NCBI GenBank assembly: GCA_005791165.1
Contig: SXXW01000019.1
Location: 17,890 to 81,889, forward strand
DNA: 64,000 bases
Direction: 5' to 3'
Source of the DNA: Cytophagaceae bacterium
Lineage (GTDB): Bacteria > Bacteroidota > Bacteroidia > Cytophagales > Spirosomataceae
Numbering within the stretch: the stretch's first letter is position 1; each line of letters begins with the position of its first letter. Positions 26,710-58,067 of this stretch are shown one piece after another. The notes beneath the pieces are model-generated. The model was given only the letters and a program-made list of their open reading frames with translations. It had not been told where the DNA came from and searched no databases. The position numbers were made by a program, and so were the translations under genes.

Positions 26710-26765
26710 TAAAGATGGTTAATATAGATGTAAGAGTTTTTATAAAGATATTAAGGAATTGTTAA
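26710..26765 (-). promoter_or_regulatory. Candidate Pho-box promoter of the PiT gene
   Basis: On minus: TTAAC (26765), TTAAT (26754), ATAAA (26743) at 11-bp period, then a degenerate -7 box CATCTTTA starting 26 nt later (26717). Confidence 0.55.
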
Positions 26766-26770
26766 ATATT

Positions 26771-28003
26771 TTATTTTCGCTTTCTTCTCGCTTTTTTCGC
26801 TTCGGCCAATAACTTTTTCGCCTCTGTATGTTGGGACGATTTCCGATCTGCTTTATCTATTACCTCTTTGCAATAATCAACCGCCTGGTCGTAATTTAAT
26901 TCTTGATATGCGATTCTAGCTAAGCCTAAAACGGATGCCCAATAATAGCCAGAATCCATGGAATCCGTTTGTTTGGAAAAAGATAGGCATTCATTAAAAT
27001 ATTTTTTTGCCTCGATTGGATTTTTAAACACGTACAGATAATAATAGCCCAAAATATAACTAGCATACCTTCCGGAAGTAGCCTCATAGCCAATTTGATG
27101 TTGGTTTATTTTTAATAAAATATCTTTTGATAGTTCCATGGCCTGATCTAATTTCCCAGTCATAAAGGCAGATCTTGCCAAAGATCGATGAAAATATGGA
27201 TTATCAGGGAAATTATCATGTGTATATTTAGCCAAATCATAGGCCTTATCCGACATATTTTCCATCCCATAAATTTGAAGTAGAAAATAGCGGGCTTCTG
27301 TGCGTGTATAAAATGCCTGGTAGCTTACTTTTTCGAGTTGTTGGATGCCCATCAACTTATTTGCCTTTGGAAAAAGCCACAATACAGGTCTTAGAAGCGG
27401 AAAATTTTGTTTGATAAAATGATAGTAGTAATTGTAAAGCCCATCGCCAAACATTAATTCAGGACTAAAATCTGCGAATTGCCGTGAATATTCTAAATAT
27501 TTTAACGCATTTTTCGCTGCTAATGTCGCGCGGGTCCAGTTCTTTCTTTCGGCATGAAGTCGGCCTTTAAATCCATAAGCAGCCGCCATAAAGAATGCAG
27601 CCTCTGGGTTCTCCGTTTCATCCCAAATTTTCTCCGCTTTTTCGATGCTCTTGTCCATGTATTCAACAAGTCGATCATCAAAAACTTCATTACCAGTGTT
27701 GGGAACAATTTTCCACCATTGCATTAATCCGAGTAGAAAATCAGGAAGTGGATGGTTGGGGTATTTGACTTTTAAATAATTAAATTCCCTTTCAGCTTCA
27801 GGAAACTTAAAATTATACATTTGATTGATTGCTTGAGTAGCCTCAATCTGCACTTCAGAGGTTAGAAGTAACATTCCTTTGGAACGTTCTTTTTCCGCTT
27901 CTTCTGTCTTTTTCCACCATTGGCCTGGAGATGAGAAGGCCAATGGGAGAAAAAATAATATTAAAGCTGCATGTCTAAGATGATATTTCAATTTCATCTC
28001 CAT
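26771..28003 (-). CDS. Exported TPR-like helical repeat protein
   Basis: Signal-like N-terminus and helical repeats. Overlaps the RNase E/G stop; alternative start 27997. Confidence 0.7.
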   Translation of the reverse strand: MEMKLKYHLRHAALILFFLPLAFSSPGQWWKKTEEAEKERSKGMLLLTSEVQIEATQAINQMYNFKFPEAEREFNYLKVKYPNHPLPDFLLGLMQWWKIVPNTGNEVFDDRLVEYMDKSIEKAEKIWDETENPEAAFFMAAAYGFKGRLHAERKNWTRATLAAKNALKYLEYSRQFADFSPELMFGDGLYNYYYHFIKQNFPLLRPVLWLFPKANKLMGIQQLEKVSYQAFYTRTEARYFLLQIYGMENMSDKAYDLAKYTHDNFPDNPYFHRSLARSAFMTGKLDQAMELSKDILLKINQHQIGYEATSGRYASYILGYYYLYVFKNPIEAKKYFNECLSFSKQTDSMDSGYYWASVLGLARIAYQELNYDQAVDYCKEVIDKADRKSSQHTEAKKLLAEAKKARRKRK

Positions 28004-29531
28004 TTTGGTTTAAGAATTTAAATTCCGTTATTCCAAATGAGGAGTCTTCTGTAATTGAAATCCATGTTTTATATTTCATAAACCAAGACATACGAACAGA
28101 AGGAAAACCTTTGGTAAAATACGCATGTAAAAACGGGTGTACCAACAAAGTCAGCTTTTTCTCATTTTGTTTAAAAACTAAATGTTCCACATGCTGTGCA
28201 ATGGTATCTGATACGGCAATGCTCGCTGTGATGGTACCCGAACCGCCGCAACTAGGACACGTTTCATGCGTAGCCACATTCATTTCTGGACGTACTCGCT
28301 GGCGCGTGATCTGCATTAATCCAAATTTCGTCAAGGGTAGAATCGTGTACTTTGATCGATCTGTTTTCATTTCATCACGCATGATGTCTTGAATCAGTTT
28401 CCGATTATCCGCCTTCTTCATGTCGATGAAATCGATCACGATAATACCACCCATATCCCTTAAACGCAATTGGCGCGCAATTTCTTTAGCTGCCTCACGA
28501 TTAACACTTAAGGCAGTCGCCTCTTGGTCATCTTCTGAATTGGATTTATTTCCAGAGTTCACGTCGATCACGTGCAATGCCTCCGTGTGTTCCACGATTA
28601 AATAGCCACCACCTGGCAAGGAAACAGACCTTCCAAAAAGCATTTTTAATTGCTTCTCGATACCTACTTGTTCAAATAATTTAATTTTGCCTGTATGAAG
28701 CTTAACGATTTTTTCCTTTTCGGGAGCCACCGTATGCACATATTCTTTGGCCTCATTATATAAATCGGGGTTGTCTACGATGACATTATCAAAATCATTG
28801 TTCAATAAATCGCGCAACATGGAAGTGGCCCGACTCATTTCACCGATAATCCTATCGGTCGATTTTGCTTCTGCTAATTTCTTAATTCCTTCTTCCCATT
28901 TAGAGATAGAGTCTTTTAAGTCGCGCTCCATTTCCTCAATGGCCTTTCCCTCCGCTACCGTTCTCACGATAACACCGTAATTTTTTGGTTTAACGGAAGA
29001 CATCAATTTTTGAAGTCGGTTGCGCTCAGAACGAGAGGTGATTTTTTTCGATATATTAACCCCATTCGCAAATGGAACCAACACCAAAAATCTTCCAGCA
29101 ATGGAAATATCACAGGAAAGTCTAGGGCCTTTTGTCGAGATAGGTTCTTTGATTACTTGAACTAAAATCTGTTGGCCTTTCGTTAAAGCTTTTTCGATTT
29201 TACCTAGTTTATCGATTTCCTCGTCAAGCTTATAATTTTCGATTCGGACATTTTTGCCTTTTTTAGTAAGGACATCCCGAGTGAATTTTTGAACGGTATT
29301 TAAGTTTGGGCCTAAGTCATGATAGTGCAAAAATGCATCTTTTTCATAACCTATATCAATGAAAGCAGCATTAAGCCCTGAAACTAATTTTTTAACTGTA
29401 CCTAAATAGATGTCTCCGACAGAGAATTTTGGCTCAGATTGTTCAATATGGTATTCTACGATTCTTTTGTCATGCAAAAGAGCAATTCTATCGCCCGTTG
29501 GGGTAGAATTTATGATTAATTCATTACTCAC
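27975..29531 (-). CDS. Ribonuclease E/G family
   Basis: S1 domain (GDIYLG, AAFIDIG, KEPISTKGPRL), IDVNSG, LRLRDMGGIIVIDFIDM, CPSCGGSG. GTG start. Confidence 0.96.
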   Translation of the reverse strand: MSNELIINSTPTGDRIALLHDKRIVEYHIEQSEPKFSVGDIYLGTVKKLVSGLNAAFIDIGYEKDAFLHYHDLGPNLNTVQKFTRDVLTKKGKNVRIENYKLDEEIDKLGKIEKALTKGQQILVQVIKEPISTKGPRLSCDISIAGRFLVLVPFANGVNISKKITSRSERNRLQKLMSSVKPKNYGVIVRTVAEGKAIEEMERDLKDSISKWEEGIKKLAEAKSTDRIIGEMSRATSMLRDLLNNDFDNVIVDNPDLYNEAKEYVHTVAPEKEKIVKLHTGKIKLFEQVGIEKQLKMLFGRSVSLPGGGYLIVEHTEALHVIDVNSGNKSNSEDDQEATALSVNREAAKEIARQLRLRDMGGIIVIDFIDMKKADNRKLIQDIMRDEMKTDRSKYTILPLTKFGLMQITRQRVRPEMNVATHETCPSCGGSGTITASIAVSDTIAQHVEHLVFKQNEKKLTLLVHPFLHAYFTKGFPSVRMSWFMKYKTWISITEDSSFGITEFKFLNQNGDEIEISS

Positions 29532-29681
29532 AAGTTTATTTGAGAAGAATGTGTGGCAGAGCTATAAGCCCTTTAAAATATACAACAAATTTAACGCCAA
29601 AAGCAGGCTCTTTATCCGAGGATAAAAGGCCTGTTCTTGCGCAACCTAATTACATTTCCATCTGGAAAAGCAATTAATACA

Positions 29682-37546: not shown

Positions 37547-37903
37547 TTATTGAATCGCAACTAAGTCGCGTTTCACTTCAGTTTGGATATTAAATGATTT
37601 TGACTGAATTAATTTCTTTCGTGAATTAAGGATGTCCATCCGATATTTTCCATCAGAAAGGTCGGAAAAGCTGAATAATTTTTGCGTTGAAATGACTTCG
37701 TTGAAAAGAATATTATTTTCTTGATCATAGATAATGACAATTAAAGAAGATTTCGGTTCAGAACGAACAAGAAATTTCATTTTACCCACTTGTTCGATGT
37801 TGACAGGTGAAATTAATTCTGATGCGTTAGCCGCAGCAGAGACAGACATGATCGCGACGAACATAAAAGCTGCGATGGATTTTTTGTTAATGGAATTTCT
37901 CAT
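37547..37903 (-). CDS. Small exported beta-sandwich protein, function unknown
   Basis: Signal peptide (ANA-S); IYDQENNIL and FSDLSDGKYRMDI resemble Ig-like/T9SS-CTD-like domains. Confidence 0.6.
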   Translation of the reverse strand: MRNSINKKSIAAFMFVAIMSVSAAANASELISPVNIEQVGKMKFLVRSEPKSSLIVIIYDQENNILFNEVISTQKLFSFSDLSDGKYRMDILNSRKKLIQSKSFNIQTEVKRDLVAIQ

Positions 37904-37950: not shown

Positions 37951-38006
37951 CAAAACTAGTGTTCTCAAATTATCTACCAATTAAATCCGCATAAAATTTA
38001 AATTAT
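37951..38006 (-). promoter_or_regulatory. Candidate Pho-box promoter of 37547-37903
   Basis: On minus: ATAAT (38006), TTTAT (37995), TTAAT (37984), then TAGTTTTG 26 nt later (37958). Confidence 0.45.
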
Positions 38007-38151
38007 CCAAGAAAGTTCTTCTTTAAAAAATTATATTTCTTTGAATTGTACAAAATTAACCTATGAATCAAAGAAAAAATAATTGCAATCATGGTGGTGA
38101 AAATTGACAGGAAAAATGATGTTAAGAAATTGTTAATAAATCTAAAACTTT

Positions 38152-38218
38152 TTAACAATTTGTTAATAGTCCACTAACGGTACCGTAATAAGTAAGGACT
38201 TTCATTAAGTTAATTTTG
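38152..38218 (+). promoter_or_regulatory. Candidate Pho-box promoter of the TBDT-lipoprotein operon
   Basis: TTAAC (38152), TTAAT (38163), CTAAC (38174), GTAAT (38185) at exact 11-bp period, then -7 box TAATTTTG at 38211 (26 nt). Confidence 0.7.
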
Positions 38219-43681: not shown

Positions 43682-44944
43682 TTATTTCAATCTTCTGTAA
43701 AAATAAAGGCTCGATAAGCTACTGATCATAAGACCTGCAATTCCCATTATCACAATCCAAGTGAAGAATAGGGACGGCAGATTTAAATTGGGTAATATGA
43801 AACCTGTGAAAAGCAACAACACATTATAGCCCAAGTATCCAATAGAGTCCACGATATACATTAAAAAGCCTATGTTGGCCTTGTGTCTAGTGATGGCAAT
43901 CATCCGCTCAAAAACCGAGGTGGTTATCGTTAAATAAGGCAAATAGATACCAAACCCTGTTAACACAATTAACCAGAATGGATCTAGTTGATTCACTCCC
44001 CACAATCCTGCGATAAGTAAAAATAGGTAGCCTGTTGCGATCGCTGACATACTGATAAAAAAGGCGATGTGGTTTTTCTTAATTAAAACCAGGCTACCGT
44101 TGATGACTAATATTCCTACCGTAACCCAAATTTCCGTTTGTGAATAGATGGATGCCTCGCCTACAAAACCTAAATATTTCCATATTTCAGGGGCAAAATC
44201 AGAACGAATTCCTCTTAAAAGTGAAGCAAATAGATACAATAAGCTAATGCATAGAATTCCAGGCCACAGCTCTTTAACTAGTGCGATGCGATCTTTCTGA
44301 GTCATGGCCGACCTTTCCGCTCGGTCTTCCTTGTCCTGCTCGGTGGGCCTAGGAATTTTTGTCAGCATCCATACAAAAAACACGAAAGGCAAAGTATAGA
44401 TCAAGCCTGCCAACGAAGGCATCCAATGTTCAGCGATGGATATATTTAATAGCCAGGTGCCTACAGATTTAGAAACACCATCTGCTAATATAAAGCTGCT
44501 TCCCAATGCCGCTATAAATAATTCGGTGTTTTTTTTGCCCTCCAAAAAGCCTTGAATGTAGCCAAAAATCATACCCAATGGCAACCCATTGATTACTAAA
44601 AAAACAATGCTGTAAGGCCTTGGAACTAGGCCAAATCCTACCAAGGCAAGCTCTGCAATGAGAATACTAATCAAAATAGCACGCGTCCTCTTTTCCCACG
44701 AAATCCCTGAAACGATGAATATTCCACACCATTTGGATAACATGTAACCGGCAATCTGAGAAGATATCAAAATTGATTTCCATGGAATTCCTATCCAATA
44801 TTGGTCTGTGTATAATCCCGCTGTAAAAGGTTTTCTAAATCCATATACGCAAAAATAACAGCCAAAAGCCGCTATCATGGACCATAATGGATGGGTAAAT
44901 ATTAGTTTGCCAGAAAAATTTACTCGACTTTTAATGGAGTTCAT
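43682..44944 (-). CDS. DUF5690-family multi-pass (MFS-like) membrane protein, putative phosphonate permease
   Basis: About 11-12 TM segments; AFGCYFCVYGFRKPF, QIAGYMLSK, NGLPLG, FLEG, SFILADG, FERMIA, GFLMYIVDSIGYLG. Overlaps the phnZ stop by 4 nt. Confidence 0.75.
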   Translation of the reverse strand: MNSIKSRVNFSGKLIFTHPLWSMIAAFGCYFCVYGFRKPFTAGLYTDQYWIGIPWKSILISSQIAGYMLSKWCGIFIVSGISWEKRTRAILISILIAELALVGFGLVPRPYSIVFLVINGLPLGMIFGYIQGFLEGKKNTELFIAALGSSFILADGVSKSVGTWLLNISIAEHWMPSLAGLIYTLPFVFFVWMLTKIPRPTEQDKEDRAERSAMTQKDRIALVKELWPGILCISLLYLFASLLRGIRSDFAPEIWKYLGFVGEASIYSQTEIWVTVGILVINGSLVLIKKNHIAFFISMSAIATGYLFLLIAGLWGVNQLDPFWLIVLTGFGIYLPYLTITTSVFERMIAITRHKANIGFLMYIVDSIGYLGYNVLLLFTGFILPNLNLPSLFFTWIVIMGIAGLMISSLSSLYFYRRLK

Positions 44945-45486
44945 TTAACAAAAGACTCCATGTAGGGAACGTAAAACGATAATTCTTTTACTTGTAAATT
45001 GGCTATTTTGGCTTGATCATCGAATCGCCTTAATTTAACCGCATCTGCGTAATATGGATTCTTTTCAAATTCTTTACATTCATCGGCCGACATAGGACCT
45101 CCTTGTAAACCTAAGCTGATTATAGAAGGCTCACTTAAAATATCTAGATATTCCGGCTCTACGGTACATAAATATCTTTTTGCCGCCACATGCAATCGCA
45201 CGGGCTCCACTACTTCTGGCGTAAAATATTGTTGGAGAAAGTCATTGGCTAAGTTCTCGTGTAAATCATCGATCCCATTTTCTGGGGCATCATCAGGTAA
45301 ATGATGCAATAAATGTCCAATATCATGTAGAATGCCTGCGACGATAATATTCGTTTTTTCACCTGCCTCATCGGCAAAATGTGCTGCTTGTAACGCATGT
45401 TCCAATTGGCTTACGGCCTCTCCTCCGTATTGAGAATCCCCATGATTTTCAAATAAATGAATTACTTTTTCTATTATCTCAGACAT
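44941..45486 (-). CDS. phnZ: HD-domain diiron phosphonate oxygenase, PhnZ type
   Basis: YGGE, LEHALQ, LHDIGH, HE, LHVAAKRYL, SIISL.LQGG, LRRFDD.AK. The ATG at 45486 is preferred over TTG 45495. Confidence 0.82.
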   Translation of the reverse strand: MSEIIEKVIHLFENHGDSQYGGEAVSQLEHALQAAHFADEAGEKTNIIVAGILHDIGHLLHHLPDDAPENGIDDLHENLANDFLQQYFTPEVVEPVRLHVAAKRYLCTVEPEYLDILSEPSIISLGLQGGPMSADECKEFEKNPYYADAVKLRRFDDQAKIANLQVKELSFYVPYMESFVK

Positions 45487-45589
45487 ATTATTCAAAATTT
45501 TGCTTGTAAATTAGCAAGCATTAGTCTGGGAAAGAAGGGTTCTAAGATTTATTTTACTTTTGTTTACGCGCCCTTAACAATTTCATAAA

Positions 45590-46030
45590 ATGAAAGCAGT
45601 TTTCAACATTCGAAAAGTTATTGAAACCGATGAAAATGCTATTCGAACCTTATTGGATGAACTAGAAAATCGTATTTCAGACCCTACTGTTTTTCAGCAT
45701 ATTTTCAAGCATTACCTAATTAGAGAAAATGCGCTATTTTTTGCAGCTGAAAATGACCAAAAAGAAATCATTGGTTTTATTACCTGCTTGGGCCAACTAT
45801 TATTGCACCACGAAGGATTAGTGTATGAGATTGAGGAATTAATCGTCACTCAAACGTATCATGGAAAGGGGATAGGCCGATTATTAATCAACCAAGTTCG
45901 AGAAGAATTAAAGCCTTACGATATAAAATCGATTGAGGTAACTTCCAATAAACGGAGAACACAAGCACATAAATTTTATAAAGCTGTAGGCTTCAAGAAT
46001 TCGCATGAAAAATTCACTTGTTATTTCTGA
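45590..46030 (+). CDS. phnO: Aminoalkylphosphonate N-acetyltransferase-like GNAT
   Basis: LLHHEG, EIEELIV, GKGIG, EVTSNKRRTQAHKFY, SHEKFT align with enterobacterial PhnO motifs; phosphonate gene context. Confidence 0.7.
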   Translation: MKAVFNIRKVIETDENAIRTLLDELENRISDPTVFQHIFKHYLIRENALFFAAENDQKEIIGFITCLGQLLLHHEGLVYEIEELIVTQTYHGKGIGRLLINQVREELKPYDIKSIEVTSNKRRTQAHKFYKAVGFKNSHEKFTCYF

Positions 46031-47172
46031 TAAAGTTTTTGAATATACTCAGAAGTAAATCCAGGGCTCGTTGTCATCCCTTTCCCCCCAATGCCATTGA
46101 TAATGTGAATCACATCATCCACTTGTTTGGTGAATACCTCAGAGTGGGTTCCTTGTATATAAAATCCAGCCCATGTGGCGTCAACATCCCATTGAGGTAG
46201 GTCAATTATTTTTTTGGCTTCATGGAGCATCAGTTCATTGATTTCTGTAGAGATCTCAAACCCAAAGTCAGCTTGTTTGCCAGCTTGAACATATTCATGG
46301 GAATCTCCCAAAATAATGGATCCGTCATCCGCTTGTTTAAACAAAATGTGAATGCCTTTATTTTGCAAAATAGTTTGTTCTGGCGTGGATGTTAATTTTT
46401 TATGCGATGGGCAAGAATGGAAACTTTCATATCGACGAATCGTGAGTCCGGTAAGAATATTTGGTTTTAATATAGGCTTTTGCGCTGCTAAACGGAGCAT
46501 TTGTAGTTTGCTGATTTTTAAATCCGAGACTGGATAATGTTCGGGCAATAAAAATTGTGTGTCTCGGCCATTGGCTATAATCACTTTTTCTGACCAAAAA
46601 TTTTGGTTTGTTGTTGTGAATACCCTGGCAATTCCTCTTTTTTTCTCTACGCCAACCACCGCGCACAAATTTTGGTAGTGTAGATCCATGTGTTGGATCA
46701 TAAATTCTCGAACTCGGTGCACCATCAATCTAGGATTTAAGGATGCTTCCTCGGATAAAAATAAGCCTCCTTTTACATAGTCCTTTTTAAAATGTGGATT
46801 TGATTTCTGACAATCATCCGCTGAATGTAATTTATTTGAATATCCTCGCTCATCAAATAGTTTCTGAATCTCTTCTAAGAGCGTTAATTCTTGGTCATCC
46901 GAAGCAAGATACCAGGATCCGTTGGGAACCAAGGAGATATTCGTTTCACTTTGTAAGTCCTTGTAAATCTGCAATGATTTACGGCCATAATCGAACCACT
47001 TGTCCATGGATTGTCCCGAGGGAACTGCTTGACCAAAATTCCGAAAACTTGCTTCAAAAGGTTGTGAGTCTTTCTCTAATAATAGAACTGTTTTCCCCTT
47101 TTTTAGTGCATGATATGCGCTAAAAGTGCCTATAATTCCACCGCCAACAACAATTAAATCATATTTTTTCAT
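46021..47172 (-). CDS. FAD-dependent oxidoreductase, TIGR03364 (phosphonate-associated amine oxidase type)
   Basis: VVGGGIIG, ASFRNFGQ, KLQML, GLTIRRYESF, GIHILFKQ..DGSIILGDSHEY, GIGGKGMT. Confidence 0.85.
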   Translation of the reverse strand: MKKYDLIVVGGGIIGTFSAYHALKKGKTVLLLEKDSQPFEASFRNFGQAVPSGQSMDKWFDYGRKSLQIYKDLQSETNISLVPNGSWYLASDDQELTLLEEIQKLFDERGYSNKLHSADDCQKSNPHFKKDYVKGGLFLSEEASLNPRLMVHRVREFMIQHMDLHYQNLCAVVGVEKKRGIARVFTTTNQNFWSEKVIIANGRDTQFLLPEHYPVSDLKISKLQMLRLAAQKPILKPNILTGLTIRRYESFHSCPSHKKLTSTPEQTILQNKGIHILFKQADDGSIILGDSHEYVQAGKQADFGFEISTEINELMLHEAKKIIDLPQWDVDATWAGFYIQGTHSEVFTKQVDDVIHIINGIGGKGMTTSPGFTSEYIQKLYQK

Positions 47173-47896
47173 TTTTTAAATCTTCAATGATTTGAATGAG
47201 GTCATCTATTTTATTTAATAATCCATCATTAGGGAATGAGGCTAATTGTTCGCGGGTATGAGTTCCATTGCACACGCCTAGGGCAAGTCTCACCCCGGCA
47301 TTTTTACCAAAAGCTAGGTCAACAGGCGTGTCACCCACATTGATAACTTCGGATAAGTTTGTTATCCCAATTTGCTTCATGGCAAACTGAATCATTTTAG
47401 GGGATGGTCGCCCTTCACCTGCTTCATCTGGAGTCACTGAAAGATGAATGCCTGATTTATTCCTAAGGTTAATAAAATTAGAATTTAAGGATTGGCTCCA
47501 GCCTAGTTTAGTCAAAATGATGTTCGCTACGCTTCGATAAAAACCCGTTGTGAGTGCAATGAAAATTCCGTTTTTGTGTAAATAATCAAAAAGTTCTTGG
47601 CATCCCTCCGTTTGAAATACTGGGTTTTTTCGATAGTGGTTTTCTAAAATTGTCTTAAAATCTTCGAAGGATTGTAACGCTTTTTCTGAAATAGAGGAAT
47701 CTGAAGAGCCGAGCTGCTCAGCCCATAGCATTGTGAAAACTTCTAATTTGGCATAACCCTGCAAGGCCAAAATCCGTTCATCGCTGGCCCACAATTCATT
47801 TTTAATAGCAGCCTCTTTGAAGCATTTCTCAACTTCATGTTGGTCTAGTACGGTTGTTCCAGCCATATCTAAGATGACTAATTTGATTGGATTCAT
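47159..47896 (-). CDS. Phosphonatase-like HAD hydrolase (TIGR03351/PhnX-like)
   Basis: DMAGTT, cap GYAK lysine, LTTGF, GRPSPKMI, VGDTPVD, GTHTREQL. Confidence 0.82.
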   Translation of the reverse strand: MNPIKLVILDMAGTTVLDQHEVEKCFKEAAIKNELWASDERILALQGYAKLEVFTMLWAEQLGSSDSSISEKALQSFEDFKTILENHYRKNPVFQTEGCQELFDYLHKNGIFIALTTGFYRSVANIILTKLGWSQSLNSNFINLRNKSGIHLSVTPDEAGEGRPSPKMIQFAMKQIGITNLSEVINVGDTPVDLAFGKNAGVRLALGVCNGTHTREQLASFPNDGLLNKIDDLIQIIEDLKNEKI

Positions 47897-47917: not shown

Positions 47918-47974
47918 TAAAATTAACAAATTCAATCTCCCCTTTATGTTACTACAATATAAATTTTTTATTAA
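47918..47974 (-). promoter_or_regulatory. Candidate Pho-box promoter of the phosphonate operon
   Basis: On minus: TTAAT (47974), TTTAT (47963), GTAAC (47952), then TAATTTTA 27 nt later (47925). Confidence 0.55.
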
Positions 47975-48076: not shown

Positions 48077-48132
48077 TTAATGATTTCTTATTTTTTGCTT
48101 AAGGGACATGATGAGTACTCTCTTTATTTTTG
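48077..48132 (+). promoter_or_regulatory. Candidate Pho-box promoter of susC/susD
   Basis: TTAAT (48077), TTATT (48088), TTAAG (48099), each preceded by C, then TATTTTTG at 48125 (26 nt). Confidence 0.6.
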
Positions 48133-48159: not shown

Positions 48160-51100
48160 ATGACAAAGAATTTACAAAAACAGGGATCCAAAATGACTCT
48201 TAGAAGAAGTTTTTGGTTCATTTTCACCTTGTGCCAGTTGGCCTTCTTGGGTGCCCATGCCCAAGAGCGCTCGATTACAGGGGTGGTCATCGGGAGTGAT
48301 GACAATGCAGGTATTCCAGGTGTTTCCATTAAGGTTAATGGAACAAACAAGGGAACAAACTCAGGTGCAAATGGACAGTTTACAGTCTCTGCGTCAACTA
48401 ACTCAATTTTGGAGTTTTCCATGATTGGTTATACAAGCAAAACTGTTACTGTGGGTAATCAATCTACATTAAAGGTTATTTTGGATGTGGATAATCGCCA
48501 ATTACAAGAGGTGGTAGTAACAGCCTTAGGTATTAAAAAAGATGTTCGCCGTATTGGTGTGGCCATTCAATCGGTAGATGGTTCAAGCACAATCAAAGCA
48601 CGTGAGCCAAATGCAATCAACGCATTATCTGGTCGCGTGGCTGGTTTGACCGTTGGAGCTCAACCGGAATTATTGAGAAAACCTAATATCTCATTACGTG
48701 GTAGTTCAACAATTTTATATGTAGTAGATGGTGTACCGATCAACTCTGATACTTGGAATATTTCTCCAGATGATATCGAAACCTATTCCGTTTTGAAAGG
48801 AGCTTCAGCTTCGGCTCTTTATGGTTTCCGTGGTAAGAACGGTGCGATTTTAATCACTACTAAACGTGGTTCTGCTGACAAGCGTGGTTTTTCTGTTGAG
48901 GTTAACTCATCTACCCAAATTCAAAGCGGTTTCTATGCCATTCCAGAAGTGCAAGACGAATATGGTCCTGGTGATCATGGTTCATATGCGTTTGGAGATG
49001 GTAAAGGGGGTGGATTGAATGATGGTGATTATGATGGGGGTTGGGGTCCAAAATTCAATGGCCAATTAATTCCTCAGTATGATTCACCAGTGGATCCTAT
49101 TACTGGCAAGCGTTCAGGTACTCCTTGGATCGCACGTGGAAAAGATAACTTGAAGCGTTTCTTAGAAGCCGGTATTTTATCTACCAATAACATTTCAGTT
49201 GCAGCGACTGGAGACAAATACAATTTGCGTTTTTCTACGTCACATATCTATCAAAAAGGTATTGTTCCTAATACCCAATTGAACATGACGAACTTCAACG
49301 TAACAGCCGATTACAAATTCTCTAATAAATTGAAATTTGAGTCGAACTTACAGTACAACCGTCAATACACACCGAATATTCCAGACGTAAATTACGGTCC
49401 CAACTCGATCATTTATAACATCGTTTATTGGGCAGGAGCAGACTGGAACATGGATGATATGAAAAACTACTGGCAAAAAGGTAAAGAAGGTGTTCAACAA
49501 ATCTATGCGGAATACCAACGTTACAATAACCCTTACTTCATGTCTTACGAGTGGTTACGTTCGCATTATAAGACGGATATCATCGGACAAGCAGCTTTGC
49601 GTTACACGTTTAATGAAAACTTGAACTTATTAGCTCGTACGCAAGTAACCACTTGGGATATGGTTCGTACAGAGAAATTCCCTTACTCTGCAGGTACGTA
49701 TGGTCGTGATGAGCGTCGTGGCGATTATCGTGAGGATCGTCGTTCATTGTTTGAGAATAATACAGAATTATTATTAACGTTTGACAAGGATATCTTACCA
49801 GGCTTTAATACAAAAATTAATGCGGGTGCATCTCAACGTGTTTTTCAATACAAGTCGATGTTCGCTTCTACAAACTATTTAAACGTTCCAGGATTATATA
49901 ACTTCTCGAACTCGGCTCTGCCTGTTCAAGTTGGTAATTTTGGTTCTGACATGAATGTTCTTTCTGCTTACTACTCCGCAGATTTTTCTTACAAGAAATA
50001 TTTGACAGTTTTCGCTACAGGTCGTGTTGATAAATTGTCAACATTGCCAGCGGGTAAAAACTCGTTCTTCTATCCATCATTTGGAGCGGTTACCGTTTTA
50101 TCTGATTATGTGAATTTACCAGAGGTAGTTTCTTTCTTGAAATTCCGTGGTTCATTTGCAAACGTTAAGGATGGTTTGACATCATCTACGATTGATAACC
50201 GCGTGGGAACTTATTCAGGTGAAAACTATAACTCACCTTATGATGGTCCTTCATACCAAAACAACACGGTATATTCAACGGGTTTCTTTTACAATAACCA
50301 AACAGGAGCAACTTATGGGAACGAATTGAGTAATCCAAACTTGAATCCATCAGAGACTTCTCAGACGGAATTTGGTATGGACTTACGCTTACTTAAAAAT
50401 CGTATTGCAATCGATGCGGCTTATTTCATCTCGAATGATGGTCCTTCGATCTTCTCTTTACCTATCTCATCTACATCAGGTTACACATCCGCTTTAGTGA
50501 ATGGTATCAAGACGCAGAAGAAAGGTTATGAGATCTCCGTAACAGGAACGCCAATTCAAATAGCAGACTTTAGCTGGGATGTATTAGCGAACTACTCTAC
50601 TTTCCAGCAGACGTTAACTGAAATTTATCCAGGTATCACGAACTTAAATACGTTCTTAAAAGTAGGGGATCGTACGGATAGAATTTATGGTTCTGCCTTT
50701 GTTCGTACCCCTACGGGAGAAATCATTAATACTAAAGCTGGTATTCCAGAAAGATTAGCTGGAACGCAGTCGCAATACTTAGGTAATGCTAACCCGGATT
50801 TCGTTTTCGGTTTGAATAATAAGTTTACTTATAAAAATGTAAGCTTAAGCTTCTTATTTGATGGTCGTATCGGTGGTAAAATTATTAACTATACACAGCA
50901 ACAAACGTACCGTGGTGGTCGTCACATTGGAACGACACAAGGTATTTTCGCTGAAGCTCGTCCACAAGATGCCTTAGGTGTGAAAGCATTCGTAGGTCAA
51001 GGTGTGGTTGTTTCGAATGGCGCTGCGATTAAATACGATGTAAACGGAAAGGTGACTAACTTTTCTGAATTACAATTCGCGCCTAACACCGTAAAGACTT

Positions 51101-51381
51101 TTGTACAAGATTACGTGGGTCGTTATTATAACACAAACGAAGGAAACTTAATGAGCCGTTCTTTCGGAATGTTAAAAGAAGTTGTGGTAGGTGTTAAACT
51201 TCCATCTACGTGGTTTGGTAAGTCAGTTTCTGGCGCGAACATTTCTTTCGTAGGACGTAACCTATTGTACTTCGCTGAAGCAAAAGATACTGATTTATCT
51301 CAGTACTTGACGGACGGCGCTACAGGTACTCAAACTCCATCAGTTAGAAGCTATGGTGTTAACTTAAACTTAGTATTCTAA
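48160..51381 (+). CDS. SusC/RagA-family TonB-dependent transporter
   Basis: LQEVVVTALGI, LYVVDGVP, DDIETYSVLKGASASALYGFRGKNGAILITTKRG, C-terminal PSVRSYGVNLNLVF. The start may be 48193. Confidence 0.95.
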   Translation: MTKNLQKQGSKMTLRRSFWFIFTLCQLAFLGAHAQERSITGVVIGSDDNAGIPGVSIKVNGTNKGTNSGANGQFTVSASTNSILEFSMIGYTSKTVTVGNQSTLKVILDVDNRQLQEVVVTALGIKKDVRRIGVAIQSVDGSSTIKAREPNAINALSGRVAGLTVGAQPELLRKPNISLRGSSTILYVVDGVPINSDTWNISPDDIETYSVLKGASASALYGFRGKNGAILITTKRGSADKRGFSVEVNSSTQIQSGFYAIPEVQDEYGPGDHGSYAFGDGKGGGLNDGDYDGGWGPKFNGQLIPQYDSPVDPITGKRSGTPWIARGKDNLKRFLEAGILSTNNISVAATGDKYNLRFSTSHIYQKGIVPNTQLNMTNFNVTADYKFSNKLKFESNLQYNRQYTPNIPDVNYGPNSIIYNIVYWAGADWNMDDMKNYWQKGKEGVQQIYAEYQRYNNPYFMSYEWLRSHYKTDIIGQAALRYTFNENLNLLARTQVTTWDMVRTEKFPYSAGTYGRDERRGDYREDRRSLFENNTELLLTFDKDILPGFNTKINAGASQRVFQYKSMFASTNYLNVPGLYNFSNSALPVQVGNFGSDMNVLSAYYSADFSYKKYLTVFATGRVDKLSTLPAGKNSFFYPSFGAVTVLSDYVNLPEVVSFLKFRGSFANVKDGLTSSTIDNRVGTYSGENYNSPYDGPSYQNNTVYSTGFFYNNQTGATYGNELSNPNLNPSETSQTEFGMDLRLLKNRIAIDAAYFISNDGPSIFSLPISSTSGYTSALVNGIKTQKKGYEISVTGTPIQIADFSWDVLANYSTFQQTLTEIYPGITNLNTFLKVGDRTDRIYGSAFVRTPTGEIINTKAGIPERLAGTQSQYLGNANPDFVFGLNNKFTYKNVSLSFLFDGRIGGKIINYTQQQTYRGGRHIGTTQGIFAEARPQDALGVKAFVGQGVVVSNGAAIKYDVNGKVTNFSELQFAPNTVKTFVQDYVGRYYNTNEGNLMSRSFGMLKEVVVGVKLPSTWFGKSVSGANISFVGRNLLYFAEAKDTDLSQYLTDGATGTQTPSVRSYGVNLNLVF

Positions 51382-51399
51382 TATTCTTCATTTTAATAA

Positions 51400-52998
51400 A
51401 TGATTCAAGCAATGAAAATCAAAAATATAATTTTAGGTATGTTGAGCTTCTCCGTAATTGCATTAAGCAGTTGTGAGAAGACCTTCGACCAGTTGGAGAA
51501 AGACTCTAACCGCGCGGTACAAGTTCCTGCATCATTAGTATTACAGTCGATCGAATTAAACGTCATGAACGACAATGGTCGTCCATTCTCTGGGGAGATG
51601 CGTTACAATCAATTTTATTGCTCTAACTATAATTATTATGCAAATAATGAATATAACTTTGGTCAAATGCCAAACCAATATACTACGTTGAAAAACGTAG
51701 TAAAGATGGAAGAGGAAGCGAAGAAGTTAGGTTTAGCTGACGTGAATGGATACTCCGCTTTAGGTAAGTTCTTCCGTGCGTATTTCTTTGATCAAATGTC
51801 GAAGCGTGTAGGGGATTTACCGATGACGGAAGCCTTGAAAGGGATTCAAAACACGGCTCCTAAATATGATTCGCAAAAAGTTATCTACACACAAATCTTG
51901 AAGTGGTTAGATGATGCGAATGCTGATATGACAGTTTTGGCTGCCAAAGGAGAGACTATCTCAGGTGATTTCTATTTCAATGGAGATTTGAAAAAGTGGC
52001 AAAAAGTGGTTAACGCTTATCGTTTACGTGTGTTGATCACTTTGTCTAAGAAAGATGCAGATGCGGAATTAGGTGTTAAAGCGAAATTTGCTGAAATGCT
52101 AACTAACCCTTCGAAGTACCCCTTGTTTGGATCGAATGGTGAGTCTTTGCAATTTGTTTGGAACAACTTCAACAAGTATCCTTCTAATCCAGATAACTTC
52201 GGTTTCGATGCAACGCGTCAAAACATGGCTTCTACGTATGTAGGATTTTTATCTAAGACACAGGATCCACGTGTGATGGCTACTTGTGAACCTGCAGGTG
52301 CTGATTTGAAGGCTGGTAAATTAGCTTCAGACTTTACGGCTTACCGTGGAGCAGGTTCAGGTGATAATATTGATGATATGGCGAGAAATGCAGGTTTGTC
52401 GAATGGTGCAGGTTTTGCTCCCGGTATCTACTCTTTCCAAAACCGTGCGCGTTACTATCAAACATATACAGGTGAAAATACATTCCTCGTGGGGTATCCT
52501 GAATTATGTTTCAATATCGCGGAAGGTTATGCACGTGGATGGGCAACGGGTTCAGCGGAAGATTGGTACATTAAAGGAATCAAGGCTTCTCAGTCGTTTT
52601 ATGGTATTGCTGAAGGTGCTAATACCATGACGTACTCGAAGTCAGGTGCACGTGATGCTGCCGACTTAGTAAAGTATACGGTTAACTTCAACTTCAATAC
52701 GTTTTATGAGCAATCTTCAGTTAAATATGACGCGGCTACAGGAATTGAGAAAATCGTTTCTCAAAAATATGCTGCCTTCTTCATGAACTCAGGGATGGAA
52801 GCTTATTTCAACTGGAGAAGAACGGGATTCCCTGCGTTCTCTTCGGGAGTTGGTAACGGAAACTCAAATCGTATTGCTTTGCGTTGGATCTATCCAGGTA
52901 CGGAAAGAACAGCTAACGCAACGAATTACAAATCAGCTATTGATAGTCAATATGCTGGTAAGGATGATATCAACGACCAAATGTGGTTGATTAAATAA
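51400..52998 (+). CDS. SusD/RagB-family surface lipoprotein
   Basis: Lipobox LSSC, GDLPMTEAL, PKYDSQK, GDLKKWQK, EAYFNWRRTGFP, C-terminal MWLIK; directly after susC. Confidence 0.93.
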   Translation: MIQAMKIKNIILGMLSFSVIALSSCEKTFDQLEKDSNRAVQVPASLVLQSIELNVMNDNGRPFSGEMRYNQFYCSNYNYYANNEYNFGQMPNQYTTLKNVVKMEEEAKKLGLADVNGYSALGKFFRAYFFDQMSKRVGDLPMTEALKGIQNTAPKYDSQKVIYTQILKWLDDANADMTVLAAKGETISGDFYFNGDLKKWQKVVNAYRLRVLITLSKKDADAELGVKAKFAEMLTNPSKYPLFGSNGESLQFVWNNFNKYPSNPDNFGFDATRQNMASTYVGFLSKTQDPRVMATCEPAGADLKAGKLASDFTAYRGAGSGDNIDDMARNAGLSNGAGFAPGIYSFQNRARYYQTYTGENTFLVGYPELCFNIAEGYARGWATGSAEDWYIKGIKASQSFYGIAEGANTMTYSKSGARDAADLVKYTVNFNFNTFYEQSSVKYDAATGIEKIVSQKYAAFFMNSGMEAYFNWRRTGFPAFSSGVGNGNSNRIALRWIYPGTERTANATNYKSAIDSQYAGKDDINDQMWLIK

Positions 52999-53256: not shown

Positions 53257-53312
53257 TTAACATAAATTTAATTTTCCGGCAATCATTAGATTATATACCC
53301 TATTTATTTTTA
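53257..53312 (+). promoter_or_regulatory. Candidate Pho-box promoter of the TBDT-phytase operon
   Basis: TTAAC (53257), TTAAT (53268), GCAAT (53279), then TATTTTTA at 53305 (26 nt). Confidence 0.6.
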
Positions 53313-53330: not shown

Positions 53331-56132
53331 ATGACTAAAAATCTACTTTTATTTTTTACTTTTTTTGCCTTTTGTCACTTTTCGGTAGCTCAAAATGGTA
53401 AATTAATCGGGAAGATTACTGACAATCAAGGGCTTTCGATGCCTGGAGCCACGGTCAAACTGAGTGGCGATTTGACGAAATCACAGGTTTCTGATCAATC
53501 AGGAAAATTCGTTTTTAACTCGTTAAAAAAGGGTAATTACACGGTTGCTATTAGTTACATTGGTTATGAGACGATCATTCAAAAATTAAATTTTGATGCT
53601 GAAGCAAAAGAAATGCTTTTTATTTTAAATGAGAAAGCTATTGAAGGTACCGAAGTTATCGTTGTAGGTGATAGATTAAAGGGTCAGGCAAAGGCGATAA
53701 ACCAACAAAGAAATAATGGCAACATTACGAATGTAGTGTCATCCGATCAGATTGGAAGGTTTCCAGATGCAAATATTGGTGATGCCATGAAGCGTATTCC
53801 TGGAATAACGATGCAGAATGATCAAGGTGAAGCGCGAAATATCATTATAAGGGGAATGGCTGCTGGATTAAATTCAGTTACACTTAATGGAGAGAGGATT
53901 CCATCAGCAGAGGGTGACAATAGAAATGTTCAAATGGATTTAATTCCTTCTGATATGGTTCAAACTATCGAGGTACACAAAGCAGTATTACCTAACATGG
54001 ATGCTGATGCGATTGGTGGTTCAGTCAACTTAATTACTAGAACTGCTCCGAATGCGCTACGTGTATCGGGAACATTGGGTGGTGGGGTTAATTTCTTAAC
54101 CAATAAACCGATTACAAACCTTTCGTTTGTTGTTGGAAATAGAATATTTAATGACAAACTAGGTTTTGTATTTTCAGGGTCTTATAACGACCATATTTTT
54201 GGCTCAGATAATTTTGAGGGAGTTTGGGCAAAGACAAAAAACCCAGCATATCCAGTCGTTTTAAGTGGTTTTGACTTAAGAAAATATGATGTGCAGCGTA
54301 TTAGGAGAAGTAGTTCCTTGGCACTAGACTACCAGTTGGCCAAAGGGCATACGATTTTTTTAAATGCCATGTACAATTGGAGAGACGATCGCGAGAATAG
54401 ATACCGTTTTCGTGTTGACAGATTAAATACACCTATTGAAGCAACTTCATTTAAAGATATTTCAAAGAATTTATATGAAATTCAAGGTCGTGTAGCTATT
54501 CAGACAAAAGGGGGTATTGATAACGATAGAAATCAAAAAACACGGTTAGAGGACCAAAGAGTAGCTAATGTAACTTTGTCAGGAGAAGACTTTTTTGGCA
54601 AATTAAAAATGAATTGGTCGGGTACGTATGCTTACGCCCAGGAAGATAGACCCAATGAAAGATATATTACCCACCGGGGTAATGCTAGAGTGAGTGTAGA
54701 TGCGCGCGATCCGTTTAAGTATATAGTAAATTTGGTTGACAAAAATAGCGCTAATTTATTGGCACTTAATACAATTTATGAGTCGAATAATTTTACTTCT
54801 GAAAGTGATTTGAATGCAAAAGTGGATTTCGAATTGCCTTTAGCAAACAAAGATAATTTTGTTAAATTTGGTGGTAGAGTAAGAAATAAGAGCAAGGAAC
54901 GAATTAACACCTATGATATTTACGCGCCCATAAAAAATTTAGGAGCTACCGGAAATACGTTGGGTCAATTGCCTCTTTCAAATCAAAATGAACGTATTTT
55001 CTTAAATGGTCCACAGTATGTGCCTGGAGCTTTTGTGACAAATGAGTATTTGGGTAAATTGGATTTTTACAATTCTTCACTTTTCAAAAAAACGGATGCA
55101 CTTGCAGAGTATATTACTTCCAACTTTGAGGCAACTGAAACAATAACTGCTGGTTATGCGATGGCTGATCTAAAACTTTCTTCCAAATTGTCATCAACCT
55201 TTGGTGTTAGAATGGAAAATACCTCAATTTCATATAACGGATATAGTTTTGATAACGTTAAAGGAAAAGCAAGTAAAACTGCGGATGTTTCTCAATCTTA
55301 TTTAAATATTCTACCAAGTGCTCATTTAAAATATGATCTGTCTCAAAACTCAATTTTGAGAGCGGCTTGGACTAATACCCTTGCTCGTCCAGCATATTAC
55401 AGCTTAGTTCCTTTTGTAAATTACAGCCCGGACAATCAAGTTTTAACTAGAGGTAATCCTAATCTTGAAGCTACCAAAGCGATGAATTTCGATTTGATGT
55501 TCGAAAATTATTTTGAGTCGATTGGTTTAGTTTCAGTAGGCGTATTCCAGAAAAATTTAAAGGATTTTATTTATGATAAAACTTCTTTGAACGTTACAGA
55601 TCCTTTGTATGGTCAATTAGTAAGTTCCACAAGACCTGAAAATGGTGGTACGGCAGGTGTTAGCGGGTTTGAAACTTCCTTTCAAAGACAGCTTGACTTT
55701 TTGCCAGGAATCTGGAAAGGTTTTGGGGTATATGCAAACTATACCTATACAAATTCCACTACTACCGGAATTGAAGGGAGAGAAAATGATAAATTAGCTC
55801 TTCCTGGAACGGCGAATCACATGTTTAACAGTTCGCTATCTTTTGAAACTAAGAAGTTGGTTTTACGTGTTTCATTAAATATGACGAGTGATTACGTTGA
55901 TGCCATCGGTGGAGATGCATTTAGCGATATTTTTTATGACAAACAGACATTTTTGGATGTAAATGCATCTTATGCATTTAACAAAAATCTTCGCGTATAC
56001 TTTGAAGCAAATAATCTTACTAACCAACCATTGCGTTATTATCAAGGAGTTAGAGAAAGAACATTCCAAGAAGAAATGTATAATTCAAGAATTGGTTTTG
56101 GAATAAAATATGATCTTTTTGGTAAAAAGTAA
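53331..56132 (+). CDS. TonB-dependent receptor, phytase-linked type
   Basis: IGRFPDANIGDAMKRIPGI, DQGEAR, MDADAIGGSVNL, NNLTNQPLRYYQG. True start is the ATG at 53331 (MTKNLL, signal peptide), not TTG 53235. Confidence 0.9.
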   Translation: MTKNLLLFFTFFAFCHFSVAQNGKLIGKITDNQGLSMPGATVKLSGDLTKSQVSDQSGKFVFNSLKKGNYTVAISYIGYETIIQKLNFDAEAKEMLFILNEKAIEGTEVIVVGDRLKGQAKAINQQRNNGNITNVVSSDQIGRFPDANIGDAMKRIPGITMQNDQGEARNIIIRGMAAGLNSVTLNGERIPSAEGDNRNVQMDLIPSDMVQTIEVHKAVLPNMDADAIGGSVNLITRTAPNALRVSGTLGGGVNFLTNKPITNLSFVVGNRIFNDKLGFVFSGSYNDHIFGSDNFEGVWAKTKNPAYPVVLSGFDLRKYDVQRIRRSSSLALDYQLAKGHTIFLNAMYNWRDDRENRYRFRVDRLNTPIEATSFKDISKNLYEIQGRVAIQTKGGIDNDRNQKTRLEDQRVANVTLSGEDFFGKLKMNWSGTYAYAQEDRPNERYITHRGNARVSVDARDPFKYIVNLVDKNSANLLALNTIYESNNFTSESDLNAKVDFELPLANKDNFVKFGGRVRNKSKERINTYDIYAPIKNLGATGNTLGQLPLSNQNERIFLNGPQYVPGAFVTNEYLGKLDFYNSSLFKKTDALAEYITSNFEATETITAGYAMADLKLSSKLSSTFGVRMENTSISYNGYSFDNVKGKASKTADVSQSYLNILPSAHLKYDLSQNSILRAAWTNTLARPAYYSLVPFVNYSPDNQVLTRGNPNLEATKAMNFDLMFENYFESIGLVSVGVFQKNLKDFIYDKTSLNVTDPLYGQLVSSTRPENGGTAGVSGFETSFQRQLDFLPGIWKGFGVYANYTYTNSTTTGIEGRENDKLALPGTANHMFNSSLSFETKKLVLRVSLNMTSDYVDAIGGDAFSDIFYDKQTFLDVNASYAFNKNLRVYFEANNLTNQPLRYYQGVRERTFQEEMYNSRIGFGIKYDLFGKK

Positions 56133-56150
56133 CGAATAGATCTTTTCATT

Positions 56151-56189
56151 AAACGTTTGCTATTTTTATAGCAAACGTTTTTTATTTTT
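56151..56189 (+). terminator. Intra-operon hairpin with T-tract between the TBDT and the phytase
   Basis: Perfect inverted repeat AAACGTTTGCTA / TAGCAAACGTTT followed by TTTATTTTT. Confidence 0.65.
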
Positions 56190-56196
56190 ACACCCT

Positions 56197-57267
56197 ATGA
56201 AATTTCGCTTTGTTATTTTTTTGTTGGCATGTTTGCTAAATATCCACTTTAGCAGTATTTCGCAAGAACGTACCTCTAAAATTCCTACAATAGAAGTTTT
56301 CCCTGAGTTTATAAGTGATACGGTTAGGTTCGATACAGATGATCCAGCCATTTATTACAATCGAAAAAATCCTGCTAAAAGCTTAATCATGGGTACTGAT
56401 AAGGGGGGTAAGATTGGTCAGGGAGGAATCTATGTATTTGATCTTTTTGGCAAAAATATTGAGGGTAAAAATCTGCTTGGCATTAATCGCCCTAACAATA
56501 TTGATATAGCTTATGGGCTTTTGGGAAAAGGTAAAAGTAAAATTGATATTGCTGTATGTACCGAACGAAATACGAATAAAATTCGTGTAATAAAGTTGCC
56601 CGAAATGCAATTAATAGATGGAGGTGGTATAGATGTTTTTCAAGGCGAAATTCAGCGTTCTCCCATGGGAATTGCATTATTCACGGACGCAAAGACAAAT
56701 AAAATTTATGCGATAGTAAGTCGAAAAGATGGTCCTTTGCAAGGGTATTTATTTCAGTATTTACTACAAGTAGGTGATTCGGGAATTGTTACCGCCAAGC
56801 TAGTTAGAAAGTTTGGTCAATATTCGGGTTTGAAAGAAATAGAATCCATTGCGGTAGATAATGAATTAGGTTTCGTTTACTATTCTGATGAAACTGTAGG
56901 TGTTCGAAAGTATTATGCACATCCGGATAGTTCGGGGCGCGAATTAGCTTTGTTCGCCAAAACTGGCTTCACAGAAGACCATGAAGGTATTTCAATTTAC
57001 AAGACCTCAGCAAAGAAAGGTTATATTTTAGTTTCGGATCAACAAGCGAATCAATTTCACGTTTTTAGGAGGGAGGGTGAGCCAGCTGATAAGCATAAGC
57101 ATGAATTGATTAAGATTATAAGGACACAAACTAATGAGAGTGATGGCAGTGAAATCACAAGTTATAAGCTTAACAGAAGATTTAGATATGGTTTGTTTGT
57201 GGCTATGTCAAATAATAAGACATTTCATTTTTATTCTGTCAAGAATTTTTTTGATGAACAATTATAA
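56197..57267 (+). CDS. Beta-propeller (Ca-dependent) phytase
   Basis: DTDDPAIY, GTDK, NNIDIAY, LVRKFG, EIESIAVD, YSDE, DHEGISIY, VSDQ, ESDG; signal peptide. Confidence 0.9.
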   Translation: MKFRFVIFLLACLLNIHFSSISQERTSKIPTIEVFPEFISDTVRFDTDDPAIYYNRKNPAKSLIMGTDKGGKIGQGGIYVFDLFGKNIEGKNLLGINRPNNIDIAYGLLGKGKSKIDIAVCTERNTNKIRVIKLPEMQLIDGGGIDVFQGEIQRSPMGIALFTDAKTNKIYAIVSRKDGPLQGYLFQYLLQVGDSGIVTAKLVRKFGQYSGLKEIESIAVDNELGFVYYSDETVGVRKYYAHPDSSGRELALFAKTGFTEDHEGISIYKTSAKKGYILVSDQQANQFHVFRREGEPADKHKHELIKIIRTQTNESDGSEITSYKLNRRFRYGLFVAMSNNKTFHFYSVKNFFDEQL

Positions 57268-57438
57268 TGAATTGTCTAAGAATTGATCTCATGATTAGGT
57301 TAGGTTATTGAACTTTTGGTCAATTAAGCCTTAACAATTTGCCCATTATTGAAAAGCTAATTGTAAGCCTTTTCACTCGACTAGAAAGAATTTTTATGGA
57401 ATAATGATCATTAGTTTAGAAAAATGTCCTTTTGAAAA

Positions 57439-57984
57439 TTAAATTTGACTCATGCATTCATTATAGATCAATTCCCGCGTTATTTCTTGATTAATTTCGG
57501 GACAATTTCGAAGGTATAGTTGGAGTAATTTCGTCTTTGATAAGCTTAAGTAAGATTTACCTGACGGTTCAAATCCTAAACTATGTAGAATGGAATGCAT
57601 TCCTAGATTATCCGTTCTTGTGGTCGAAAATAAGTGCTCGTTTTTAAATTTATTCATTAGCTCAGCGCATAGAATGGAAGCCAACTTTTGATTTCTATAT
57701 GGCGATTCGACAAACACATATCCAAGTTCAAAGATGTATTTCGAAGGATTCAAATCGGCCAGTGCTTTGTTAAAAACTTCATTGATATAATAGGTTTCTG
57801 GGATTTTAATACTGGTTGTTGCCATGATGGAATCCCCATCTTTAAAATAGGCTGTTAATGCCGAGGAATAAAGTCGGTTTTCCACTAAGCTAGCATTCGC
57901 CTCATTGCCTTTTATAATGAGCCCTTGAATCTTAATCTGATCTTTTTCTGACATTTCTCGGTAGGTGCCGATATATAAATCCAT
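57439..57984 (-). CDS. GNAT-family acetyltransferase
   Basis: FELGYVFVESPYRNQKLAS, FSTTRTDN, LGF. Confidence 0.75.
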   Translation of the reverse strand: MDLYIGTYREMSEKDQIKIQGLIIKGNEANASLVENRLYSSALTAYFKDGDSIMATTSIKIPETYYINEVFNKALADLNPSKYIFELGYVFVESPYRNQKLASILCAELMNKFKNEHLFSTTRTDNLGMHSILHSLGFEPSGKSYLSLSKTKLLQLYLRNCPEINQEITRELIYNECMSQI

Positions 57985-58000
57985 GAAGTTAAATTTTCAG

Positions 58001-58067
58001 CAAACATAGTGTCCTTTCAAAAGCTTTTGAATACAGAATTGTGAAATTAAAGTGAATAAAAAGTTAA
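58001..58067 (-). promoter_or_regulatory. Candidate Pho-box promoter of the GNAT
   Basis: On minus: TTAAC (58067), TTCAC (58056), TTCAC (58045), GTATT (58034), then TATGTTTG at 58008 (26 nt). Confidence 0.55.

Follow-up and report, generated by a model that had tools for sequence, protein, structure and literature searches.

Phased direct repeats as a candidate Pho box in the Spirosomaceae lineage of Bacteroidota

In Bacillus subtilis, the core binding region of PhoP is made up of TT(A/T/C)ACA repeats about 11 bp apart, several of which are needed, in the context of a Firmicutes sigma-A promoter. The Pho box of Escherichia coli consists of 11-bp direct repeats, which stand in for the -35 element and keep a constant spacing to the -10 element (class II activation by PhoB), in a system that is autoregulated and activates phosphorus scavenging (PMC9306846, PMC1906773). 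The cyanobacterial regulator SphR, from Synechocystis and relatives, reads a Pho box of at least three 8-bp CTTAACCT units separated by 3-bp linkers (PMC1906773). Here we examine a stretch of 64,000 nucleotides (the window) from the genome of a Cytophagaceae bacterium, in which seven promoters carry three or four TTAAY- or GTAAY-like pentamers at a fixed distance from the -7 box. These arrays are probably Pho boxes of the Spirosomaceae lineage, read by a phosphate-starvation regulator, and we give this reading a probability of roughly 0.8.

Within Bacteroidota, we found no phased Pho box tied to a -7 element in the literature, and the sole sequence-level precedent was the motif of Riemerella anatipestifer PhoP. 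That study describes a PhoB/PhoP-type regulator that is up-regulated by phosphate starvation and regulates its own operon; in DNA affinity purification sequencing and electrophoretic mobility shift assays it binds that operon and the promoter of a TonB-dependent receptor, and the most conserved bases of its motif are TTTAACA (PMC9603813). In the passages searched, the authors liken the motif to that of ArcA and discuss virulence and aerotolerance, and phased arrays of three to four units, a fixed -7 register and a phosphorus-acquisition regulon were not found described there (PMC9603813). At the level of proteins, low phosphate induces SusCD-like pairs, a phytase-linked TonB-dependent transporter (TBDT) and pectate-lyase-like lipoproteins encoded beside TBDTs in Flavobacterium, in a study that describes no promoter motif (bioRxiv 10.1101/719427).

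The switch proposed here is of a well-known type, and its novelty is modest, the core of the units matching both the SphR box and the TTTAACA of Riemerella. Its TTAACA-like hexamers at about 11 bp also recall the B. subtilis PhoP consensus. The likeness to the SphR box lies in the TTAAY/GTAAY core, the 11-bp period and the number of units (three to four), whereas the arrays of the window come from another phylum, are phase-locked to a -7 box of the form TAnnTTTG, cover the -33 position and prefer GTAAY as the last unit. With the Riemerella system, the likeness is one of motif. In layout the arrays also fit the general paradigm of PhoB (PMC9306846). The E. coli box differs from these arrays in its core, which is of the TGTCA type, and the family studied here lacks PhoU and mostly lacks PstSCAB; in one of its subclades, the genes for regulator and kinase are unlinked.

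Architecture of the seven arrays

The window corresponds to G000:C13:17890-81889 of a metagenome-assembled genome of 2.57 Mb (38% GC, 84% complete), for which whole-genome gene calling gave 2172 genes and 93.6% coding sequence. Close relatives of one of its proteins are found in freshwater Cytophagales of the family Spirosomaceae (Aquirufa and 'Cytophagaceae' assemblies, followed by Arcicella and Flectobacillus). An earlier note on this DNA had claimed that seven promoters share a single architecture, namely pentamers at an 11-bp period, the last of which starts 26 nt (27 nt once) before a TAnnTTT-type box. When we re-read the promoters, the pentamers and the distances stood, and the period was exactly 11 bp in all seven arrays; the box did not stand at PiT, where the candidate reads CAtcTTTA. 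The arrays, named after the genes that they precede, are as follows.

26710-26765, minus strand: PiT promoter; TTAAC 26765, TTAAT 26754, ATAAA 26743; weak -7 candidate CAtcTTTA at 26717
37951-38006, minus strand: promoter of a 118-aa gene (37903); ATAAT 38006, TTTAT 37995, TTAAT 37984 (/ATAAT); TAgtTTTG 37958
38152-38218, plus strand: TBDT 38271 promoter; TTAAC 38152, TTAAT 38163, CTAAC 38174, GTAAT 38185; TAatTTTG 38211
47918-47974, minus strand: phosphonate promoter, in the 27-nt register; TTAAT 47974, TTTAT 47963, GTAAC 47952; TAatTTTA 47925
48077-48132, plus strand: susC promoter; TTAAT 48077, TTATT 48088, TTAAG 48099; TAttTTTG 48125
53257-53312, plus strand: TBDT-phytase promoter; TTAAC 53257, TTAAT 53268, GCAAT 53279; TAttTTTA 53305
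58001-58067, minus strand: GNAT 57984 promoter; TTAAC 58067, TTCAC 58056, TTCAC 58045, GTATT 58034; TAtgTTTG 58008
38121-38166, minus strand: two more TTAACAA-type two-unit sites, in the divergent region between 37903 and TBDT 38271 and absent from the earlier list

One of the two additional sites overlaps the plus-strand site of TBDT 38271 as a near-palindrome. Within the units, a pyrimidine follows TAA, no consistent purine precedes it, and the last unit prefers GTAAY. In the source genome, the TTG of the -33 element begins 22-24 nt upstream of the -7 box, so that a unit at -26 covers its usual place, in line with the overlap between operator and -33 position that had been proposed earlier. 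No TTTG at -33 spacing was found in the Pho-type promoters that we inspected.

Excess over chance and conservation in relatives

A scan anchored on the -7 box, with shuffled sequence as the control, had been suggested as a check. Each TAnnTTT[GA] box was scored for three TTAAY units placed at offset 48, with a maximum of 15; the 1050 upstream regions of the genome contained 710 such boxes. The bulk of the boxes scored at most 10, six reached at least 12 and five at least 13, while 500 composition-preserving shuffles gave expectations of 1.26 and 0.18 (maxima 5 and 3), and out-of-phase offsets in the real sequence gave the same expectation as the shuffles. The excess was specific to register and to period: scores of at least 13 were obtained by five boxes at offset 48, three at offset 59, two each at 37 and 49, and none to two, mostly none, at other offsets; a period of 11 gave five such boxes, and other periods within 5-17 gave none or one. 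In addition, TTAACA-N5-TTAA occurred 13 times at period 11 in intergenic DNA, compared with about four times at other spacings; these counts were limited to intergenic DNA because TTAAY pairs in the whole genome are swamped by the 3-nt periodicity of coding sequence.

Contig C13, to which the window belongs, carries all five top sites. Four of them are the arrays of 37903, TBDT 38271, susC and TBDT-phytase, of which 37903, susC and TBDT-phytase score 13/15 each. Three arrays of the earlier list fall outside this strict test, namely PiT with its non-canonical box, the phosphonate promoter with its 49 register, and GNAT 57984, which scores 11/15 at offset 48 and 13/15 at offset 59. The top anchored site of the whole genome (14/15; TTTAC/TTAAC/TTAAC and TAgcTTTG) lies 7 kb past the end of the window, at G000:C13:88764-88819. 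It precedes a gene for a 270-aa calcineurin-like phosphoesterase (Metallophos), followed by a glycosyltransferase gene. On the basis of domain content and gene order, we call this pair PlcP-like, since it resembles plcP-agt; marine bacteria, a flavobacterium among them, express plcP and a glycosyltransferase as a lipid-remodelling pair when phosphorus is deficient (PMC4796936). Further downstream are a second phosphoesterase gene, a NeuB-family gene and a fatty-acid hydroxylase gene.

These numbers bear on the alternative that degenerate pentamers in AT-rich promoter DNA have given rise to the arrays by chance. The DNA is indeed AT-rich, units such as ATAAA, GCAAT and GTATT are degenerate, and loose whole-genome pattern scans do not exceed their controls; with three mismatches allowed, a scan of five genomes was not above the reversed-pattern control, and only matches with 0-2 mismatches were informative. 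However, the anchored excess (5 against 0.2 expected) depends on phase and period, the sites are concentrated on a single island of phosphorus genes, and the arrays are conserved across genera. The architecture of the seven promoters is far beyond chance, and we consider this alternative barely credible.

Elsewhere in the genome, an array at offset 48 from TAtaTTTA (G000:C9; L002:6770-6832) opens with a perfect palindrome around GTTAAC (AAAATTGTTAACAATTTT); it lies upstream of an 83-aa reading frame without a family match, which is followed by an AAA_14/DUF4143 ATPase gene. Relaxed two-unit matches at TetR/RND efflux, phosphoribosyltransferase and START-like/LptFG genes and at a TBDT gene on contig C8 look like chance. 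We also set aside TTAACA-N5-TTAAT before an AIRS-family (SelD/ThiL-like) gene (G000:C26:110033-110091), the offset of which, 34, is out of phase. The same site is kept in a genome of the same genus, G021 (G021:C2:16093).

A de novo motif search on orthologous promoters, likewise proposed beforehand, gave the same architecture. Orthologues of plcP were present in 53 of 60 sampled genomes of the family, and expectation-maximisation on 30 plcP upstream regions, run with no prior, returned three [T/G]TAAT units 11 bp apart; in these arrays, the distance to the downstream -7 TTTG box is 37 or 48 nt. Phased arrays were also found before each of the seven phytase-linked TBDT orthologues from other genera, at 37 or 48 nt (27/16 in one) before a -7-like TTTG box, and before about 14 of the 24 PhnX-like orthologues of the family. 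When the plcP, TBDT-phytase and PhnX-like sets were pooled and the source genome was excluded, a two-unit site lay 26/27, 37/38 or 48 nt from a strict box in 17 of 20 cases. Across these promoters, the spacer sequences vary and the phase is kept.

Closer to the source genome, the PiT, 37903 and TBDT promoters of G021 retain in-phase units despite diverged flanks. Its PiT promoter keeps the first two units and has a canonical box, TAcTTTTG, 37 nt from the first of them. At 37903, it has TTTAT/TTAAT/TTAAC in phase with the same box, and at TBDT 38271, TTAAC/GAAAC/ATAAT/TTAAC in the same register. In four close relatives, the best pattern matches precede TBDT genes, plcP, and a purple acid phosphatase gene that is divergent from a TBDT gene.

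Symmetric binding has to be weighed against direct repeats here, since the strongest two-unit sites (TBDT 38271, the C9 site and C13:88794/88808) are nearly identical on both strands. A symmetric dimer of another protein family might bind a palindromic core, TTAACAA-N-TTGTTAA, with the additional units being incidental AT-rich sequence. We prefer a direct repeat because three to four units share one orientation, because a pyrimidine follows TAA without a consistent purine before it, and because GTTAA-N6-GTTAA direct repeats stand before the regulator gene in distant relatives. The orientation and phase of the arrays also follow the direction of transcription, and a palindromic operator seems to us very improbable.

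Genes, candidate regulator and signal

The genes behind the arrays of the window are listed below.

25218-26675, minus strand: PiT, PHO4-family inorganic phosphate transporter (Pfam PF01384, 300 bits)
37547-37903, minus strand: 118-aa gene, divergent from TBDT 38271
38271-41090, plus strand: TBDT (Pfam)
41121-42887, plus strand: beta-helix lipoprotein behind TBDT 38271 (protein atlas: pectate-lyase-like beta-helix clusters)
42947-43498, plus strand: 183-aa protein that closes the TBDT 38271 gene set
43682-47896, minus strand: phosphonate catabolism genes, namely a PhnX-like hydrolase and TIGR03364 oxidoreductase, then Phn-HD oxygenase and DUF5690
45590-46030, plus strand: PhnO-like GNAT acetyltransferase gene between the phosphonate units
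48160-52998, plus strand: SusC/SusD-like pair (Pfam)
53331-57267, plus strand: TBDT, with its ATG at 53331, and beta-propeller phytase (56197-57267) (Pfam)

Three of the units had been credited with recognisable phosphorus functions, and the families bear this out: a PHO4 transporter, a beta-propeller phytase behind a TBDT, and phosphonate genes (TIGR03364, Phn-HD and PhnX-like), for which the TIGR03364 and Phn-HD (TIGR03276) matches both exceed the NCBIfam cut-offs. The phosphonate genes do not form the single operon of the earlier description; they are two minus-strand units parted by the plus-strand GNAT gene. A TTTAC/TTAAC/ATAAA array (45553-45590, plus strand) ends at the annotated ATG of that PhnO-like acetyltransferase gene and shares a 94-bp gap that must also hold the divergent Phn-HD/DUF5690 promoter. 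For the phytase-linked TBDT, the most likely start is ATG 53331 rather than TTG 53235, so that its array is promoter DNA rather than coding sequence.

The earlier note had also assigned four uncharacterised units to phosphorus metabolism. For TBDT 38271, this assignment gained support: with its lipoprotein, it fits the TBDT/lipoprotein gene-pair class of Flavobacterium under low phosphate, and the fold class of the lipoprotein matches that of the Flavobacterium lipoproteins FI-FIII, which are induced by low phosphate. The lipoprotein also shares 32% identity with proteins of G007 and G057, which have arrays of their own; its family (pectate-lyase-like beta-helix) is common in Bacteroidota. For GNAT 57984, the assignment is weak. 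It is the weakest member of the set, and no orthologue was present among the 60 family genomes, so that footprinting was not possible.

We then turned to the protein that may read the arrays. The genome encodes four OmpR-family response regulators, of which two look CusR-like, one looks RprY-like, and the fourth (C21:27873-28571) has PhoB models as its best NCBIfam matches. Its orthologue was the top match to the Bacteroidota PhoB model in each of five other family genomes. In more distant members of the family, a PhoR/PnpS-like kinase gene directly follows the regulator orthologue. In the Aquirufa-like subclade, a GHL10-family gene stands there instead, and the PhoR-like kinase gene is unlinked (C25:27158-28183 in the source genome). 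The promoter of the regulator gene carries TTAAC-N6-GTAAC 27 nt before TAtaTTTG. This site was found at exactly 27 nt in 50 of 79 distinct regulator upstream regions (Aquirufa, Arcicella, Flectobacillus and others), a variant with ATAAC is present in about 17 further regions, and the 11 bp that separate site and box vary freely across the 79 regions. Such conservation suggests autoregulation, and this footprint is the best argument that the product of C21:27873-28571 reads the motif.

Some larger genomes of the family have a paralogous PhoB-like regulator gene directly beside plcP (G003:C2:130409-142077; G017:C245:13388-15126) or no more than about 10 kb from plcP or PhnX-like genes (G053:C6:2256785-2278593; G023:C89:3669-12154). 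These four loci look like phosphorus islands with a regulator copy of their own.

The proposed mechanism can be outlined as follows. Under phosphate limitation, a PhoB/OmpR-type response regulator, for which the orphan C21:27873-28571 is the best candidate, would be phosphorylated, with the PhoR-like protein C25:27158-28183 as its putative kinase. It would then bind head to tail to [T/G]TAAY direct repeats 11 bp apart, the units of which start about 48, 37 and 26 (sometimes also 15) nt upstream of the Bacteroidota -7 box TAnnTTTG. With its proximal units lying where a -33 element would otherwise be, such an array would let the bound regulator bring RNA polymerase to promoters without a usable -33, most likely in a class-II-like manner, through head-to-tail dimers on successive units. 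The predicted regulon comprises PiT, the TBDT with the beta-helix lipoprotein, phosphonate catabolism, the SusCD-like pair, the TBDT with phytase, the PlcP-like operon and the regulator gene itself; the 118-aa gene and a GNAT gene are probable further members.

For the signal there is a competing account, in which an OmpR-family regulator binds the arrays but answers to something other than phosphate, such as general nutrient or envelope stress, and controls outer-membrane uptake broadly. Several targets are indeed TBDT or SusCD genes without a proven phosphorus role, and C21:27873-28571 scores under the PhoB cut-offs. In the Riemerella study, the 'PhoP' with the TTTAACA motif has a broad regulon, discussed in terms of aerotolerance and virulence (PMC9603813). 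Against this, PiT, phytase, phosphonate catabolism and the PlcP-like pair are four phosphorus-specific units, the targets in a relative include a purple acid phosphatase, and PhoB and PhoR/PnpS models are the best matches of the regulator and its partner kinase. We therefore regard a non-phosphate signal as unlikely.

Several observations weigh against a phosphate-starvation regulon. Two arrays are imperfect, the -7 box of PiT being non-canonical and the units of GNAT 57984 reading TTCAC. A position weight matrix of 34 nt built from the plcP orthologues showed no genome-wide enrichment (15 matches above 10 bits, compared with 14.6 in shuffles); the same matrix placed the window sites and the regulator promoter within its top 13. 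The 9-mer TTAACAATT was not over-represented in intergenic DNA relative to its permutations. The regulator falls short of the PhoB cut-offs (TIGR02154, 204 against 296 bits; NF053854, 194 against 270 bits), no array was found before the PhoR-like kinase gene, and in the four pst-bearing relatives the arrays at pstS promoters are only moderate. Finally, the genomes of the relatives are not independent, so that counts across them overstate the support. On the other side stand the PlcP-like top site, the phase-locked arrays of orthologous promoters, the site in the regulator promoter and the overlap with -33. The regulon inferred in the earlier note is supported by this evidence, with GNAT 57984 as its weakest member.

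Phosphate sensing and meaning for the family

In the family, the Pho regulon would have to respond to phosphate by a route other than the one known from E. coli. None of 61 family genomes yielded PhoU (PF01895), compared with 13 of 14 control genomes, and pstC was present in four of the 61. Neither PhoU nor pstC was found in the source genome among the canonical Pho genes sought for motif testing, and its sole PstS-like protein is encoded behind TonB/ExbBD-type genes. The family thus does not show PstSCAB-PhoU signalling of the E. coli type, and with PhoU in 0/61 and pstC in 4/61 genomes the usual Pst-PhoU input to PhoR cannot apply. Tentatively, the Pho regulon of the family may run without the canonical sensing module, with PiT rather than Pst as the Pho-box importer and with a novel form of sensing via PhoR directly, PiT or another partner; we consider this possible, though less likely than not. 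If it is true, the arrays would provide a ready read-out for finding the sensing mechanism.

With a defined Pho box in a fixed -7 register, the phosphate-starvation regulon of uncultured freshwater Bacteroidota could be read from their sequences. The box points to probable co-regulation of PiT, phosphonate catabolism, phytate use and lipid remodelling, and it suggests roles in phosphorus scavenging for the TBDT with its beta-helix lipoprotein, the SusCD-like pair and two small genes. The absence of PhoU, and for the most part of Pst, sharpens the question of how these bacteria sense phosphate.

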